Positions 1-62,979 of a stretch of DNA of 62,979 bases are shown here, piece after piece. Location: positions 1 through 62,979 of the forward strand of contig JAIFMD010000029.1 in assembly GCA_020048755.1 (NCBI GenBank), written 5' to 3'. The notes under the pieces are model-generated. The model worked only from the letters and a program-made list of their open reading frames with translations. It did not search any database and was not told the origin of the DNA. A program made the translations under genes and the position numbers. Position 1 is the stretch's first letter, and every line of letters begins with the position of its first letter. This DNA is from Spirochaetota bacterium (GTDB lineage Bacteria; Spirochaetota; Spirochaetia; Treponematales; UBA12059).

Positions 1-1037
1 CCATCCTGTTCTATCAGGATGCGCCCGGCTCCAACCAGACCCAGCGCCTGGGGTTGTACTTTCCACGTGATTATCTGCCCCTGACGACGGATCTTTCCTC
101 CCGCGCAGCGGATGTAGACTCTGGCAGTCCGGACGAGTCTGGATACTCTGAAGAACCGCGTCCTCAGTGGCGGGACGCTCCGCTCGTGGCCCTCGTTGTC
201 TTTGCGCTGGTGATAGCCATATCCCTGCTGTTGTACCGCAAGCGCGTGCAGGCGCATGCCAAGCGCTCCGCAATCGTTGAAGGCATCGCGTGGGCAGGCG
301 ACGCCTGGACTCCACCAAAGCTGTTTGCCGGTACCTACCAGGTGCCAGGCAAGGTACCTGAAGACCTGCACCCCGTGGAGGCTGCGCTGCTCCTGGAACT
401 GGCCCTGCCGCGCATAGCGGCCATCATGGTGGACGGTCTGGCGGCCCAGGGGCTCGTGGCCGTGGAGCGCGAGGATCCGCTGCGGCTCAGGTTCCTTTCG
501 GAACGCAAGGCCAGCGACGATATCGAGGAGCGTTTCCTTGCAGCCTTCGACGCCGACGGCAACGTGCTTCCGGGCTTGCTGGCCGATTTCTTCGAGGAAT
601 CGATAAAGCGCCTGCAGGAGAAGATCTGGGACTGCGACCTCGAAGCAACCAAGGCTTTTTATAGAAAGAAGATCCTGGAGGCACAAGTCAAGGCCGAGGA
701 AGTTGATTCCTGGGATGAAACGAGACGCCTTGACTATTACCGCCACAACCACGCCTGGATGTACTGGCGCAGCTATGGCATCGTCTATGGTCGACCCTCG
801 TACATGGCCGGTATCAGGCTCCCCGAAGGTATGTCTGCCGGTTATGCTGATTTCATGCGCTCTGCAGTGTGCTATTCCGGCTGTTTTACGCCGGCCAATG
901 TCGGCACGGTTGACGCTTGCCATTCAGCCTGCCACAACGCATGCCATGACGCCTGCCATTCAGCCTGTCACAGCGCCTGCCACTCCGCGTGCCACAGCGC
1001 CTGCCATAGTGCCTGCGTCTCGGGGAGTTCGCATTGA
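1..1037 (+). CDS. Single-pass membrane protein with a C-terminal (A-C-H-x)9 CXXX-repeat tail. It is either 5'-partial or starts at TTG 54.
   Basis: The reading frame (codon phase from nt 3) is open to the window edge, and TTG at 54 is the first possible start. One hydrophobic helix 'APLVALVVFALVIAISLLLY' is followed by 'RKRVQAHAKR' (positive-inside), so the C-terminal ~240 aa should be cytoplasmic. The tail reads 'ACHSACHNACHDACHSACHSACHSACHSACHSACVSGSSH*'. The stop overlaps the next gene's TTG (TTGA at 1034-1037). Confidence 0.7.
   Translation, partial: ILFYQDAPGSNQTQRLGLYFPRDYLPLTTDLSSRAADVDSGSPDESGYSEEPRPQWRDAPLVALVVFALVIAISLLLYRKRVQAHAKRSAIVEGIAWAGDAWTPPKLFAGTYQVPGKVPEDLHPVEAALLLELALPRIAAIMVDGLAAQGLVAVEREDPLRLRFLSERKASDDIEERFLAAFDADGNVLPGLLADFFEESIKRLQEKIWDCDLEATKAFYRKKILEAQVKAEEVDSWDETRRLDYYRHNHAWMYWRSYGIVYGRPSYMAGIRLPEGMSAGYADFMRSAVCYSGCFTPANVGTVDACHSACHNACHDACHSACHSACHSACHSACHSACVSGSSH
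915..1022 (+). repeat. Nine in-frame 12-bp tandem repeats (gcYtgYcaYnnn) encoding (Ala-Cys-His-x)9
   Basis: Read directly from the sequence: gcttgccattca / gcctgccacaac / gcatgccatgac / gcctgccattca / gcctgtcacagc / gcctgccactcc / gcgtgccacagc / gcctgccatagt / gcctgcgtctcg. Confidence 0.95.
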
Positions 1038-2362
1038 CGAGTACCCTGGAACGCCTGGAGTGGGTGTACGGTTTCTGGAAGAGCCTCTCGCCGTATGCCT
1101 ATGCGCGGGTGGAAGACGAGGTGGTCATCCTGCCGCCCAACCTGGTGTTCAAGACAAACCGCACCGGCGCACAGTTGCTCGACCACATCGGCTCGGGCGG
1201 CCGCCTCGAGGGCATACCCGGCTTCTCCGACGAGCGCGCTGCCGAGGTGGAGGCGTTCTTCCTGTCGCTCAAGGCCGCTTACGAGGGGCGGCCTGATCTG
1301 GAACGGGTGCCGTACGGGTTCGACTTTACGAAGCTGCCCGTACTCGGCGAGATAGCCATAACCTACCGTTGCAACAACCTGTGCCGCTTCTGCTACGCGG
1401 GCTGTGGCGACGCCTCCGGCCTCGCGCTGGCGCAATCCTCCGGCGCGTCGGAACTGGACACCGCCGGCTGGAAGCGCATCATAGACATCTTCAGGGACGA
1501 GGCAAAAATTCCGTTCTTCTCGTTCACCGGCGGTGAGCCATTGGTCCGCCCCGATGTGGAGGACCTTGCTGCCTATGCCGTCTCGCGCGGGCTCCGGGTA
1601 AACCTGGTGACGAACGGCAGGCTCGCCACTCCGGAGCGCGCCGCCAGCCTGTTTGCGTCTGGCCTGCACACCGCCCAGGTCAGCCTGGAGGCTCCAGGTG
1701 CGGCCCTGCACGACGAGCTCTGCGGTGCGGCTGGCGCCTTTGACGAAACCGTGGCTGGCATAAGGGCGATGCTAGCAGCCGGCATTTCGGTGCAGACAAA
1801 CTCCACGCTTACCCGCGCCAACCGCGAAGCCCTGCTGGAATTGCCAGCTTTCGTGGCTTCTCTTGGCGTCAGGCGCATGTCAATGAACCTGTTCCTGCCT
1901 ACCGGCTCGGGCAGGGCCGCCTCTGACTTGTTCTTTCCGTATGCCGAGACAGGCGCCTTTGTGGACGAGGTTCGCAGGCGGGCCCTTGAGGCCGGCGTCG
2001 ACTTCTACTGGTACTCGCCGGTTCCGATGTGCCTCTATAACCCGATAGCCCGAGGGCTGGGTAACAAAAGCTGCGCAGCCTGCGACGGGCTGCTTTCAGT
2101 TTCGCCGTCGGGTGACGTGTTGCCCTGTTCTTCCTGGCCGGAGCCGGTAGGCAACCTGCTGGCCGACGGGTTCAAGGCGGTGTGGTTCTCCGATGCCGCC
2201 GCCTGGTTCAAGGAAAAGAAGTTTGCCCCCGAATCGTGCAGGACCTGCTCTTCATTCACGGCCTGCCAGTCGGCTTGCCCGCTGTACTGGCGCTATGCCG
2301 GCTATTCAGAGATACAGAATTGCAAGGAGGCTCGACGATGGAACATCGTTTCAAGTACCTGA
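1034..2362 (+). CDS. Radical SAM/SPASM-domain peptide or protein maturase with an N-terminal PqqD-like (RRE) domain
   Basis: CxxxCxxC 'CNNLCRFC' lies at nt 1370-1393 (aa 113-120). The ~95 aa before it ('VVILPPNLVFKTNRTGAQLLDHI...') resemble a PqqD/RRE fold. The C-terminal SPASM cysteines are 'CAACDGLLSVSPSGDVLPC' and 'CRTCSSFTACQSAC' (Cx2Cx5Cx3C). Confidence 0.85.
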   Translation: MTSTLERLEWVYGFWKSLSPYAYARVEDEVVILPPNLVFKTNRTGAQLLDHIGSGGRLEGIPGFSDERAAEVEAFFLSLKAAYEGRPDLERVPYGFDFTKLPVLGEIAITYRCNNLCRFCYAGCGDASGLALAQSSGASELDTAGWKRIIDIFRDEAKIPFFSFTGGEPLVRPDVEDLAAYAVSRGLRVNLVTNGRLATPERAASLFASGLHTAQVSLEAPGAALHDELCGAAGAFDETVAGIRAMLAAGISVQTNSTLTRANREALLELPAFVASLGVRRMSMNLFLPTGSGRAASDLFFPYAETGAFVDEVRRRALEAGVDFYWYSPVPMCLYNPIARGLGNKSCAACDGLLSVSPSGDVLPCSSWPEPVGNLLADGFKAVWFSDAAAWFKEKKFAPESCRTCSSFTACQSACPLYWRYAGYSEIQNCKEARRWNIVSST

Positions 2363-3225
2363 AACTCGGCCTGCGCTCAAGGCTGGTCGCCGCTGCCGCC
2401 CTCTACGCGGGGGCCGTAGCCTTGCAGGTAGCACTTGGTTCCTCTTTCGCGGGCCTTTTCCCCGTTTTCGTGGCGTGGTTCCTCCTCGCGCTCAAGCCGG
2501 CCACCAACAAGCCCAAAGACAAGGGCCTGGAAGAGTGGCGGGCCGTCTCCGACGGCGAGGTTGCCCGCATCGCCGACAACCTTTCACGGTCAAAGAAGCT
2601 GCGTGCTTCCATAGCCGGGCCTGCCGTGCTCAAGGTGCTGCTGCTGGCCGGCCTGCTGTTCGCGTCGCTCGTTGTTTCATTTGATTCGCCCCGTGCCGGT
2701 CTTGTCCTCTTTGACCTGGGGCTGTTCTGCCTGCCGGGCCTGTTTTTCGGCAGCGTCAGAACCCATGTGCCGTTTGAATTCGACCTCAAGCTGGCCAGGT
2801 TCGTGGCCGCGATGAACGTGGCCCGGCCAGAAGGCTTCGTGCTTACTCCGTATCTTCGCTTTGACAAGGACGACCAGGGCCGCGACGTACCGGAGGACCT
2901 CCGCCTGATGCTCGAGCCCCGCCGCAAACCGGAGGATCTGGTCGGCATACAGTTCCAGGCGTCAATAAACAAGGGCGCCAACGGCAATGTGCCGTACATG
3001 TACGCCGTCGTCCTGACCAAGGGCCGCAACGGCCCGGCCTACACCCGCTTCAGGACGATGAGCGCCCGTGGCTTTGAGGTGGAGGCTGGTGGCGACGACA
3101 ACTATGGCACCGTGGTGGTGCGCCAGGATACCGGCAACGGCGGTTACCACACCACCGACGATGACTGCGAGCAGCTGATGGGCCTGATGCTCAAGGCGCT
3201 GCAGAAAGTCGAGGCTACGGCCTGA
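2338..3225 (+). CDS. Polytopic membrane protein of unknown function, third gene of the radical-SAM module
   Basis: ATG 2338 is preceded by 'aggagg' (2325-2330) and overlaps the radical-SAM gene end by 25 nt. About 4 hydrophobic segments ('LVAAAALYAGAVALQVAL', 'LFPVFVAWFLLAL', 'VLKVLLLAGLLFASLVV', 'LVLFDLGLFCLPGLFFG') are followed by a ~170-aa soluble domain. I recognise no motif. Confidence 0.6.
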   Translation: MEHRFKYLKLGLRSRLVAAAALYAGAVALQVALGSSFAGLFPVFVAWFLLALKPATNKPKDKGLEEWRAVSDGEVARIADNLSRSKKLRASIAGPAVLKVLLLAGLLFASLVVSFDSPRAGLVLFDLGLFCLPGLFFGSVRTHVPFEFDLKLARFVAAMNVARPEGFVLTPYLRFDKDDQGRDVPEDLRLMLEPRRKPEDLVGIQFQASINKGANGNVPYMYAVVLTKGRNGPAYTRFRTMSARGFEVEAGGDDNYGTVVVRQDTGNGGYHTTDDDCEQLMGLMLKALQKVEATA

Positions 3226-3237
3226 GTCAGAGGCGTT

Positions 3238-3900
3238 TCAGTAATCTGCGGGCTCTATACCCAGATATGCAAGGTAAGCCCGGGTAAGTTCCGTTATGAG
3301 CTGTCCGGTATCGCAGGCCTGGCCGGTGCGAAGAGGTTCCCACAACAGGAATTCGCGCATTGCAAAGAACATCTGCTGAAAGCCGAACAGGACAGCACGC
3401 CTGGGATGCTGGTGCCGAATCAAGTGCTCATGTACCAGCAGGAACTTCTCCAGTGCCGGGTAAAGCTCATCCCAGGCCCTGCGTTCACGTTCCTTGAAGC
3501 GATCATCCCCATGGATGCGGGCCTTCATGTTGAGGGATCTCAGGAGCCCGTGATCCCTGCCGTAAATATCAACCATAAAACCAATCGCATCCCTTGCGAT
3601 ATAGGCAATAGTCCCGTGTTCCCAGTCTTTCGATGCGATCCTCTCACTCAGCCGCTTCTTGAAACCTGCAAGAAAACGTTCGTCAAGCGCGTGGAGCAGG
3701 GCATCCTTGTCGGCAAAGCGCCCATAGAAGGCCCCAACGGATGTATCAGCCTTGATGACTATCTCGGCAATAGTCAGTTCCTCAAAGTTCTTGTATTCTA
3801 GTATCTCTGTAGCAGAGTCAAGAATCCGCGTCAGGGTTTCCCTGCTTCGATCCTGCTGAGGCTGCCTGAAAGATTCAGTAATCGCACTATTGTTGAACAT
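3238..3900 (-). CDS. TetR/AcrR-family transcriptional regulator
   Basis: N-terminal HTH signature 'RETLTRILDSATEILEYKNFEELTIAEIVIKADTSVGAFYGRFADKDALL'. The ~220-aa size is typical of the family. Confidence 0.85.
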   Translation of the reverse strand: MFNNSAITESFRQPQQDRSRETLTRILDSATEILEYKNFEELTIAEIVIKADTSVGAFYGRFADKDALLHALDERFLAGFKKRLSERIASKDWEHGTIAYIARDAIGFMVDIYGRDHGLLRSLNMKARIHGDDRFKERERRAWDELYPALEKFLLVHEHLIRHQHPRRAVLFGFQQMFFAMREFLLWEPLRTGQACDTGQLITELTRAYLAYLGIEPADY

Positions 3901-3973
3901 GTATCCACCCTGTGCTAAAATAGAATGTCTGTTCTATATTTATATTGTATGGTACCAGAGATACGCAATATCA

Positions 3974-6151
3974 ATGCGCCGGGGGAAACAGTTGACTCTG
4001 AAAATATTGAAACATCCCATGATTGGCTGTCGTGCTCCTAGCGTCCCACGGGTTTCAAGCGCATTGTTTTTTTCATTCTGTGCTGCAATGTTCCTGCCGT
4101 CTACGGTATGCGCGGATGATTTAGCGATCAGTGTGTATGGAAACGCCATGATACCCCTCGCGGCTTCCGCACCCTTTTTCAATGCGGGGGTCATGACCGA
4201 GGCTGGAGCTTCGTACACCTTGGCCAATGGTTTTGGAGCTGAAATCGATGCCGTCTATTCCCGATCACCACTGGAATCAGGCCCGACCCTTGCCCTGATC
4301 GGGGCCTCGCTCGGTGGTCGCTATGTACGGTCCCTGGGAACAGCATTTTCCTTGGGAGCAACAGCCGGTATCGGCGTATACACATCCAGCATAGATGGTG
4401 CGTTGCCCGGATCGATCCTGGAGGATGCTGGTGGTTTGGGCATGTCAGCGGATGCCGGGCTGTTTTTTGCCTTCAGGGTTGTTCCTGCCTTTGAACTCTC
4501 CGTAGAAGCACGGTACCTGAAGTTGTTCAACCTCTATGACGGCCTTACCGCAGGGCTTCGTGTTTCCTACGTTATCGATGCCACAAAATCCACCAGGCCA
4601 CGCGTTGAAAAAACCGTGCGCTCTGGTCTGGAGGAAGCCACGGGAGTGACCCTGGCCAGGGTGGAGCTGGAGTCTATTTTTCCTGTATTCTACTCATATT
4701 ACAACGGTAATCACTTTGGCGAACTGACCCTGCATAATAATGAAAAGAAACCGGTATCAAACCTGCGGGTGTCATATTTCATGCAGCGCTACATGGACTC
4801 TCCAGCCATACTGCTCGACGGCGCGCAGCTTGGAGCCGGCCAGGATACGACTATCCCGGTAACGGGCCTGTTCAACGATTCGATACTCAACATAACAGAA
4901 GGCACGCTGGTCGTTACCGAGTTTACGCTCTCGTACACGCTTGACGGCAAGCCGCATTCCACGACCATTGCCAAGCCGCTCAGGATACTTGACCGCAATT
5001 CCATGAGCTGGTTCGATGACCGCTGTGCCGCAGCCTACGTTACCGCGAAAGACCCGGCCGTACTTAATTTCTCCAAGAATGTAGTCGGGGCGGTTGCGGG
5101 CCGCGACGCGTTTACCCTTGACCGCGGCTTGCAGGCCGCTGTAGCCATCCACGCGTCACTTGAACTGTACGGCATGAATTACCTTGTGGACCCCAAGTCA
5201 TCCTATGCGGCCATATCGGGCAGCAAGGGCGCTATAGATTTCCTGCAATTCCCTCGGCAGACGCTCGAGTACCGTTCCGGTGATTGTGACGACCTTTCAA
5301 TCCTCTATGCTGCCTTGCTGGAGGCTGCTGGCGTGGAGACGGCCTTTATTACCACACCGGGCCACATCTTCATCGCCATTGCCATGGACGGCGACGAGGC
5401 AACGATCAGGCGGCTGTTCAGCAGTGCGGCTGACTTCATCTACTCCAACGGAAAGGCCTGGCTGCCGCTTGAGATAACGGAACGGCACGGGGGCTTCCTG
5501 AAAGCCTGGAAACTCGGTGCCAGCGGATGGCGTGAGAATCTGGCTGCCGGAGAGGCCAGGCTGCATCCCGTCAGGGAAGCCTGGACCGTGTTCGAACCAG
5601 TAGCCATGCCAGGCAGCTCGTCCACCGTCGTTCCCCCGAGAGGCGCAGCCTTGGATACCCGCTACGACGAGACCATGAAGGCCATCGTCGAGCGTGAACT
5701 CGCTCCGCAAGAGTCGCGCCTCAAGCTGGAAATCGAGAAGTCACAAGGCTCGGTCAAGCTCCGCAATTCGCTCGGCATCCTGTATACCAGATATGGCCTC
5801 TATGCCAGGGCCGGTGAACAATTCCTTGCCATCCTCAAGGAGAAAAAATACCTGCCGGCCCTGATAAACATGGGCAACGTGGAATTCGTTGGCCGTGACT
5901 ATGCGGCAGCCCGGGCTTACTTTGCCGAGGCGTACGGCTTGCATGAAAGCAATACCGGTGCCCTCGTGGGCCTGCTCCTGACCAGCTATGAACTCGGCGA
6001 CCAGGCTGGAGTCGCCCGGTATTTCCAGGAAATAAAGAAACTCGACGCGGCCCTGTCAGAGCGCTTTGCCTATGCGCTCCGGGCGGGATCCGGCGAGGGT
6101 AGAGCTTCGGCAACGACCGACACAAGGGAGACAGTGCTATGGACAGAATGA
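3974..6151 (+). CDS. Secreted multidomain protein: beta-barrel-like N-terminal region, transglutaminase-like cysteine-protease core and C-terminal TPR repeats
   Basis: Signal-like 'ALFFSFCAAMFLPSTVCA'. The N-terminal region has alternating-pattern strands. The transglutaminase core reads 'SGDCDDLSILYAALLEAAGVETAFITTPGHIFIAI'. TPR-like 'LGILYTRYGLYARAGEQFLAILKEKKYLPALINMGNVEFVGRDYAAARAYFAEAY'. The start is uncertain (ATG 3974 or 4019); the 3890 start would overlap the TetR gene. Confidence 0.65.
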   Translation: MRRGKQLTLKILKHPMIGCRAPSVPRVSSALFFSFCAAMFLPSTVCADDLAISVYGNAMIPLAASAPFFNAGVMTEAGASYTLANGFGAEIDAVYSRSPLESGPTLALIGASLGGRYVRSLGTAFSLGATAGIGVYTSSIDGALPGSILEDAGGLGMSADAGLFFAFRVVPAFELSVEARYLKLFNLYDGLTAGLRVSYVIDATKSTRPRVEKTVRSGLEEATGVTLARVELESIFPVFYSYYNGNHFGELTLHNNEKKPVSNLRVSYFMQRYMDSPAILLDGAQLGAGQDTTIPVTGLFNDSILNITEGTLVVTEFTLSYTLDGKPHSTTIAKPLRILDRNSMSWFDDRCAAAYVTAKDPAVLNFSKNVVGAVAGRDAFTLDRGLQAAVAIHASLELYGMNYLVDPKSSYAAISGSKGAIDFLQFPRQTLEYRSGDCDDLSILYAALLEAAGVETAFITTPGHIFIAIAMDGDEATIRRLFSSAADFIYSNGKAWLPLEITERHGGFLKAWKLGASGWRENLAAGEARLHPVREAWTVFEPVAMPGSSSTVVPPRGAALDTRYDETMKAIVERELAPQESRLKLEIEKSQGSVKLRNSLGILYTRYGLYARAGEQFLAILKEKKYLPALINMGNVEFVGRDYAAARAYFAEAYGLHESNTGALVGLLLTSYELGDQAGVARYFQEIKKLDAALSERFAYALRAGSGEGRASATTDTRETVLWTE

Positions 6152-41950: not shown

Positions 41951-41970
41951 TCGCTCGGTTCGTTACCACT

Positions 41971-42042
41971 GTCCCCTTCGTCTAGTGGTTAGGACACCGG
42001 GTTTTCATCCCGGCAACGGGGGTTCAATTCCCCCAGGGGATG
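41971..42042 (+). tRNA. tRNA-Glu (anticodon UUC)
   Basis: Hand-folded cloverleaf: acceptor GTCCCCT/AGGGGAT, D stem GTCT/GGAC, anticodon stem CCGGG/CCCGG with loop TT-TTC-AT, and T arm GGGGG-TTCAATT-CCCCC. It is very similar to E. coli tRNA-Glu. No CCA is encoded. Confidence 0.9.
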
Positions 42043-42046
42043 TAGG

Positions 42047-62856: not shown

Positions 62857-62979
62857 TCAGGGAGCCTTGTAGACCACGTATGAGGTTGACCACTCGCCGT
62901 ACTCGGTGGTGGTGATGCCGTTCTCCGTGCTTGCGTAGAATCCACTATCCGGGCCTCCGGTCTTGATATAGAAGACACC
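62857..62979 (-). CDS. 3' end of an unidentified gene running off the window (partial)
   Basis: My own translation of the minus strand: 'GVFYIKTGGPDSGFYASTENGITTTEYGEWSTSYVVYKAP*', open to the window edge with GC-rich third positions. No function can be assigned. Confidence 0.3.
   Translation of the reverse strand, partial: GVFYIKTGGPDSGFYASTENGITTTEYGEWSTSYVVYKAP

Follow-up and report, generated by a model that had tools for sequence, protein, structure and literature searches.

A radical SAM/SPASM enzyme gene overlapping the gene of a membrane protein with a nine-cysteine tail in Spirochaetota

Introduction

What is the substrate of a radical S-adenosylmethionine (SAM) enzyme whose gene overlaps that of a membrane protein ending in a row of evenly spaced cysteines? 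The question is raised by the first 3,225 nucleotides of contig JAIFMD010000029.1 (assembly GCA_020048755.1, Spirochaetota bacterium), which was analysed here from position 1 to position 62,979; this whole stretch of DNA is referred to as the window. An earlier note, made from the letters of the window alone, had proposed that a maturase of the type known from peptides that are made by ribosomes and modified after translation (RiPPs) cross-links the tail of the membrane protein in place, instead of making a secreted natural product. This interpretation is supported at the genomic level by the analysis described below, which covers the organization and conservation of the gene unit, the tail, the enzyme and the third protein encoded next to them.

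Results

A unit of overlapping genes

The unit consists of three co-directional genes, which are referred to as g2, rSAM and g4.

3..1037, + strand: g2, C-terminal 344 residues of a DUF2207-like single-pass membrane protein (frame open from nucleotide 3)
1034..2362, + strand: rSAM, radical SAM/SPASM enzyme of 442 amino acids (TTG start; Pfam PF04055 and PF13186)
2338..3225, + strand: g4, four-helix membrane protein of 295 amino acids that also has a cytoplasmic alpha/beta domain (AlphaFold2 (AF2) model)

Both overlaps described previously were confirmed by the sequence. The TTG start codon of rSAM at position 1034 shares the letters TTGA (1034–1037) with the stop codon of g2 (1035–1037) and has GGGGAG seven nucleotides upstream, whereas the ATG start codon of g4 at position 2338 is preceded by AAGGAGG and opens a 25-nucleotide overlap (2338–2362) with the end of rSAM (stop codon at 2360–2362). 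Because the three genes overlap, there is no intergenic room for a separate small precursor open reading frame (ORF).

On its 5′ side the g2 frame runs off the start of the window at nucleotide 3. The closest relatives are two loci (L085 and L086) with 92.7% DNA identity over window positions 1–3226. The g2 protein of L085 has 578 amino acids, and the part present in the window corresponds to its residues 235–578, with 335 of 344 residues identical. Judged by L085, the first 234 residues, which probably form a periplasmic DUF2207-like domain, fall outside the window. The large membrane protein postulated by the earlier note thus stands, while its length, put at 327 amino acids or more, has to be raised to the 578 of L085. 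The three-gene picture, too, is incomplete as far as spirochaetes are concerned: their loci contain a fourth gene, g1, which lies upstream of g2 and outside the window and encodes a protein of about 205 amino acids (204–212) with two membrane helices and a helical domain. The core unit is g2-rSAM-g4, with g1 added in spirochaete-type loci.

Conservation of the pairing

More than 120 homologues of rSAM were found at 55–93% identity, and those with a name belong nearly all to Spirochaetota. A homologue is present in an assembly of the cultivable Spirochaeta dissipatitropha. A scan of one genome per species detected relatives in 149 genomes, from which the best 80 loci were fetched. A tail-bearing g2 homologue directly precedes rSAM in 80 of 82 loci, and in the other two the contig ends at the rSAM start. 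About a dozen loci stem from metagenome-assembled genomes (MAGs) labelled Myxococcota, Proteobacteria, Holophagaceae or Bacteroidaceae; there, the g2 bodies share no more than about 30% identity, with hardly any change in the tail. The reverse search, which started from divergent tail proteins, also led to rSAM, so that the predicted neighbourhood of maturase and cysteine tail holds in both directions. Specifically, the genes of two divergent g2 proteins with 32–36% identity (P0141 and P0138) are followed by a gene for a radical SAM/SPASM enzyme and then by one for a protein of 319–324 amino acids that is homologous to g4, with hhalign probabilities of 99.1% (L083) and 93% (L047).

Neither a protease nor an exporter gene is conserved nearby, which extends to the relatives what had been remarked before; the neighbour family ranking next in frequency was seen in no more than 18 of the 82 loci. 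The simple ORF caller used for neighbour clustering merged g2 and rSAM and sometimes took antisense ORFs in GC-rich loci, and the clustering served only to show the absence of other conserved neighbour families. In a rumen MAG (L052, 4247–11168) the gene order is g2, rSAM, g4-like, g2′, g4-like′, with full nine-cysteine tails on both g2 copies; a single enzyme would here be served by two copies of its substrate.

The nine-cysteine tail of g2

Three elements of g2 are relevant to the proposed modification.

915..1034, + strand: tail, ACHS-ACHN-ACHD-(ACHS)5-ACVSGSSH, the presumed substrate
843..893, + strand: conserved segment YADFMRSAVCYSGCFTP directly before the tail (column identity 0.6–0.9 in 75 homologues)
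177..236, + strand: transmembrane helix APLVALVVFALVIAISLLLY, read from the sequence

The C-terminus of g2 reads VDACHSACHNACHDACHSACHSACHSACHSACHSACVSGSSH and is followed by the stop codon. It is composed of eight A-C-H-x units and one A-C-V-S unit, and contains nine cysteines at exact i+4 spacing together with eight histidines. Nine A-C-H-x units had been counted before; the nine cysteines are correct but the ninth histidine is not, as the last unit is ACVS. Exactly nine cysteines are present in 77 of 81 tails. Cysteine, histidine and alanine are fixed in each unit and the fourth residue is serine, asparagine or aspartate, except that unit 1 accepts H, Y, V or F at the histidine position and unit 9 reads C-V-S-G. 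Mean column identity amounts to 0.91 in the tail, compared with 0.64 in the preceding 30 residues and 0.51 in the remainder of the C-terminal half.

At the DNA level the repeat is far less regular. Codons for alanine, cysteine, histidine and serine are fully mixed within and between genomes, both serine codon boxes included, and the 12-nucleotide periodicity is matched to only 73%. The scrambled codons show that selection acts on the tail as a peptide, and a recent expansion of a DNA repeat was rejected as its origin on account of these codons and of the fixed cysteine count. The arrangement is not a product of chance: it is found again in 80 of 82 loci, the tail exceeds the body in identity, and codons are mixed in the repeat. 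The fixed number of nine cysteines with seven or eight histidines suggests a defined metal, cluster or cross-link structure.

A profile search among 1.84 billion representatives yielded 594 g2-family clusters at E≤0.001; where the C-terminus is intact, the sequence closes in most cases with (ACHx)n-ACVSG. Four full-length members (P0296, P0310, P0314 and P0319) end without an ACHx tail and may be tail-less paralogues. Public gene calls of g2 homologues are often partial, frame-shifted or falsely fused to rSAM. In short-read assemblies the 12-nucleotide repeat seems to be broken or collapsed, and the family may have escaped curation for this reason. Short-tailed or frame-shifted homologues (P0125, P0133 and P0139) were put down to errors of assembly or gene calling in the repeat, and a seeming g2-rSAM fusion of 937 amino acids (P0135) was set aside as an artefact in which the tail was collapsed and read in another frame.

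The membrane helix of g2 is directly followed by the stretch RKRVQAHAKR. Because positive residues come after the helix, the tail is placed in the cytoplasm by the positive-inside rule; the C-terminal half of g2 and its tail are thus predicted to reside in the same compartment as the enzyme. This cytoplasmic half measures roughly 260 residues and includes, after the basic stretch, a region of about 225 residues. The conserved segment before the tail, with the consensus FMxSxxC[FY]xGCFxP, is a candidate 'leader-like' element for binding by a RiPP recognition element (RRE). On the other side of the membrane, g2 homologues possess a signal peptide and a periplasmic domain. PF09972 (DUF2207) was matched by 6 of 18 of them (best E 3.5e-7), and some are annotated as DUF2207. 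Two full-length g2 proteins (L001 and L002) had no Pfam match at E≤1, nor did the g2 fragment of the window match Pfam, and no NCBIfam family was matched by full-length homologues.

The radical SAM/SPASM enzyme

The following elements were recognized in rSAM.

1034..1345, + strand: predicted N-terminal PqqD-like RRE domain (AF2: helix, three strands, then helices)
1370..1405, + strand: radical SAM motif CX3CX2C (C113, C117, C120) and invariant fourth cysteine C124 (63 sequences)
2024..2278, + strand: SPASM cysteines C333, C347-X12-G-X4-C365 and C402-X2-C405-X5-C411-X3-C415 (invariant in 63 homologues)

Both domains are matched in Pfam (PF04055 Radical_SAM, E 1.9e-20, 74 bits with the cutoff at 29.5; PF13186 SPASM, E 1.3e-8, 35.4 bits with the cutoff at 21.5), and the SPASM domain contributes seven invariant auxiliary-cluster cysteines. 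In the AF2 model of the enzyme (mean predicted local distance difference test score, pLDDT, 85.9) the N-terminus is built from a helix (residues 2–18), three strands (23–25, 30–33 and 37–40) and two further helices (43–53 and 66–83). The best Foldseek match of the model was peptide-bound SuiB (5v1t; E 4e-15, 446 columns on a target of 439 residues), in a full-length alignment that takes in the SuiB RRE, followed by SkfB (6efn); anSME was a weaker match at rank 32. Pfam PqqD matched the N-terminal domain weakly but recurrently, namely in 9 of 15 homologues (best E 0.0089). Based on the predicted structure we accept that the enzyme probably bears an RRE-like N-terminal domain. With this predicted fold, SuiB and SkfB as best structural matches and seven SPASM cysteines, rSAM is most probably of the peptide-maturase type. 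The architecture of RRE, CX3CX2C and SPASM that had been read from the sequence is thus borne out by Pfam, by the invariant cysteines and by AF2 and Foldseek. Directly after CX3CX2C-YAGC, residues 125–140 (about 1406–1453) form a variable low-complexity insertion with pLDDT <60, whose length is about 12 residues here and reaches about 60 in some homologues.

The best 25 of 66 NCBIfam matches of rSAM were examined, and all are far below their cutoffs. Scores were 129.2 bits for AhbD and 116.6 for NirJ2 (500 required in both cases), 86.3 for NirJ (about 500), 100 for a mycofactocin maturase (265), 94 for PqqE (381), 75 for StsB (625) and 67.8 for the ACGX-repeat maturase TIGR04340 (400). No anSME model was among these 25. 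As no NCBIfam cutoff was reached, the enzyme is not assigned to a non-peptide family, in agreement with the initial proposal. In a search with PADLOC, rSAM showed generic similarity of its radical SAM core to pVip models (E 4e-15, residues 108–266) and nothing beyond this, and g2 and g4 matched no defence-system model; a role in anti-phage defence was therefore rejected.

The third protein, g4

The AF2 model of g4 (pLDDT 91.5) consists of four membrane helices and a C-terminal alpha/beta domain (residues 146–294). This agrees with the description of g4 as a protein with about four transmembrane segments and an unrecognizable soluble domain, as the Protein Data Bank (PDB) holds no significant match: at E≤0.001 none was obtained with Foldseek, the best being weak resemblances to YbjN/AmyR and to type III secretion system (T3SS) chaperones. 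Despite the confident model, no function was therefore derived from the fold. None of 213 g4 homologues has a Pfam domain, and g4 matches no NCBIfam model. The invariant residues in an alignment of 55 sequences include neither histidine nor serine, and g4 thus has no obvious catalytic set of the Ser/His type. We infer a binding or docking role.

Downstream boundary and other features of the window

The similarity to L085 and L086 stops at nucleotide 3226, right past the g4 stop codon. Next in the window is a TetR-family gene (3238–3900; PF00440, E 6e-10), which is convergent with the trio. In L085, L086 and L001 the position after g4 is occupied by rsmH (Methyltransf_5), and in L002 by other genes. 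The convergent TetR gene is thus located where it had been reported, but it is not a conserved neighbour, and it was rejected as a member of the unit because similarity to the closest relative ends at 3226 and other loci carry different neighbours. The end of similarity at this position, with rsmH in the relatives and TetR in the window, points to a local rearrangement or insertion boundary. The cassette (1–3225) has a G+C content of 62.4%, compared with 57.1% for the entire window. Diverging from the TetR gene is an ORF of 753 amino acids (3890–6151) with a sub-threshold match to the transglutaminase core PF01841 (E 7e-4; 20.3 bits, cutoff 23). A tRNA-Glu gene (anticodon TTC) at 41970–42043 is the sole Rfam or ARAGORN match in the window.

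Discussion

On balance, we lean towards the view that the tail of g2 undergoes modification in the cytoplasm and remains part of the protein. According to this model, rSAM would be made by translational coupling right after g2, and its PqqD-like N-terminal domain would bind the FMxSxxC[FY]xGCFxP segment. The enzyme would then move along the tail, with the 5′-deoxyadenosyl radical installing one cross-link per four-residue unit, and the modified tail would remain on g2 in the cytoplasm without cleavage or export, where it is probably held or docked by the cytoplasmic domain of g4.

Two types of chemistry come into consideration. Our first choice would be a ladder of cysteine thioethers of the sactionine or ranthionine type, which fits the nine invariant cysteines and a SPASM domain with seven cysteines. 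In CteB, for comparison, one cluster site is left free for the binding of a substrate cysteine. The second choice would be cyclophanes between His-C2 and Ala-Cβ, as formed by HaaB on HAA motifs (PMC11499958). These fit the invariant histidine and alanine at positions i and i+2 with a variable residue in the middle, the motif pattern of triceptides. The finished His-lined rod with its cysteine or thioether groups could be a rigid, metal-binding or signalling element of an envelope protein. With more reserve, we suggest that RiPP-type chemistry acting on a membrane protein that stays in place might form a widespread class of its own, in which the cytoplasmic (C-H-x-A)n tail of a DUF2207-like envelope protein would be converted to a multiply cross-linked, His-lined rod of fixed length that is retained and works together with g4 as a metal-binding, redox or mechanical element.

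Several observations weigh against modification in place. Adjacency of genes is no proof of an enzyme-substrate relation, and the acceptor atom of a cross-link cannot be deduced from sequence. The RRE assignment draws on a predicted structure and on sub-threshold sequence matches, and a PDB profile search with the N-terminal domain of rSAM found no match. The top NCBIfam similarities of the enzyme, far under their cutoffs, are to the heme-modifying AhbD and NirJ2. Shorter tails occur in some metagenomic homologues, and at least a part of these cases are assembly collapses. Finally, the nine cysteines can be read as three CxxxCxxxC triplets.

This last point leads to the strongest of the other explanations, in which the tail is an unmodified element that binds a metal or an Fe-S cluster, and rSAM acts elsewhere or takes the tail as a donor of electrons or of a cluster. 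CxxxCxxxC on helices binds a [3Fe-4S] cluster in plant TCR (PMC7848650), histidine is kept beside seven of the cysteines of g2, and the fixed repeat number would suit a defined cofactor site. This model leaves the invariant alanine of each unit unexplained, however, and it has to contend with the strict adjacency and translational coupling of rSAM to the tail gene, with an enzyme that has an RRE-like domain and most resembles peptide maturases, and with the lack of any other candidate substrate gene conserved nearby. We consider it unlikely.

Less probable still is a conventional RiPP, for which g2 would be an oversized leader or scaffold whose tail is cut off by a protease with its gene at another place and set free as a natural product. 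The enzyme does have the architecture of a RiPP maturase, and cores with cysteine repeats are known from other radical SAM systems; the tail of P0141 matches one target model of this kind, TIGR04117, weakly, and PF27846 faintly. Yet the prediction places the tail in the cytoplasm, the 82 loci show no conserved protease or exporter, and in place of a short leader-core precursor there is a partner of 578 amino acids, with no room for an intergenic ORF. Moreover, the core is near-identical across groups labelled as different phyla while the body drops to about 30% identity, which is unusual for an antagonistic or signalling product, and we know of no described RiPP with a membrane-anchored leader of roughly 535 residues.

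That the CX3CH motifs of the tail (C-H-S-A-C-H) are cytoplasmic sites of covalent heme attachment, at which an AhbD/NirJ-like enzyme attaches or modifies a tetrapyrrole, is very improbable: CX3CH is known as one form of the motif that binds c-type heme and AhbD and NirJ2 head the NCBIfam matches (129 and 117 bits), but these scores, far under the cutoffs of 500, reflect the shared radical SAM/SPASM core, the neighbourhood has no conserved genes for heme biosynthesis or cytochrome maturation, and to our knowledge AhbD-type enzymes have no RRE and no radical SAM enzyme attaches heme to cysteine.

Modification in place finds its nearest parallel in the CXXX-repeat system of NCBIfam, in which, as here, a radical SAM/SPASM maturase adjoins a protein ending in Cys-X-X-X repeats. 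That system is defined by comparative genomics only. The model for its target, TIGR04117 ('Cys-Xaa-Xaa-Xaa repeat radical SAM target protein'), spans about 98 positions, as opposed to a membrane protein of 578 amino acids here, and its partner maturase family is presumably TIGR04115. The earlier note had named this family, but the unit is not a member of it: the tail in the window does not match TIGR04117 even at E≤10 (cutoff 50 bits), that of the divergent homologue P0141 reaches 15.5 bits, and rSAM is below all cutoffs, with the CXXX-repeat maturase model outside its best 25 NCBIfam matches (any match having E >1.8e-13). PF27846 was likewise not matched by the tail in the window.

The maturases of ranthipeptides and sactipeptides (PapB, which acts on six CX3D motifs of freyrasin; CteB with SCIFF; SkfB; AlbA) share with rSAM the combination of RRE, radical SAM and SPASM domains, and their substrates have evenly spaced cysteines. 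SkfB is among the best structural matches of rSAM, and StsB and AlbA are matched in NCBIfam below cutoff. What they act on, however, are short leader-core peptides destined for cleavage and export, in contrast to the tail of a membrane protein with no conserved protease or exporter. In addition, the repeat of g2 lacks a conserved acidic acceptor and has an invariant histidine, and rSAM is under the cutoffs of all families.

Triceptide synthases such as HaaB and HtkB act on repeated three-residue motifs with an aromatic residue or histidine in first place, a variable middle residue and a fixed third one (PMC11499958). The H-[S/N/D]-A of the tail unit fits this pattern, and H-x-A occurs seven to eight times. 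Triceptide precursors give rise to small-peptide products and, unlike the tail of g2, their rings are not separated by invariant cysteines.

Retention of a modification by the target protein has precedents among SPASM enzymes, as anSME acts on sulfatases and QhpD on QhpC, and both targets keep the modification for function. Yet anSME is devoid of an RRE and recognizes one C/S-x-P/A-x-R site, and no C-x-P/A-x-R motif is present in the g2 tail, whereas QhpC is a small soluble subunit; a membrane protein or a nine-fold repeat is found in neither case.

DUF2207 proteins are commonly paired with LemA, and g1 precedes g2 as LemA precedes DUF2207 genes. A relationship of g1 to LemA was rejected, however, as g1 matched no LemA, other Pfam or NCBIfam model and had no sequence support from the PDB. 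We know of no canonical DUF2207 protein with a radical SAM partner or an ACHx tail. Full-text literature searches found no paper joining 'DUF2207' and 'radical SAM', and no description of the unit when directed at DUF2207, at CXXX and ACGX repeats, and at SPASM enzymes with membrane-protein tails. A stress-tolerance phenotype has been reported for DUF2207 in S. mutans (PMC10457818). The logic of the enzyme is as known; what differs is the context of the presumed substrate, that is, the tail of a membrane protein of 578 amino acids with two unannotated partner membrane proteins and without conserved genes for cleavage or export.

Work on radical SAM/SPASM maturases has dealt almost wholly with the making of small secreted peptides. 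In the present unit, their architecture is tied to the C-terminal tail of a large membrane protein, and relatives of the enzyme are present in the genomes of at least 149 species. If the proposed modification takes place, RiPP-type cross-linking would extend to permanent protein architecture, and the tail of 40 near-invariant residues together with rSAM would represent an enzyme-substrate pair that is easily tested. A new type of cross-link, such as one involving histidine, might emerge from such work. It would also provide a first functional handle on DUF2207-type proteins and an experimental entry to the unannotated families of g1 and g4.

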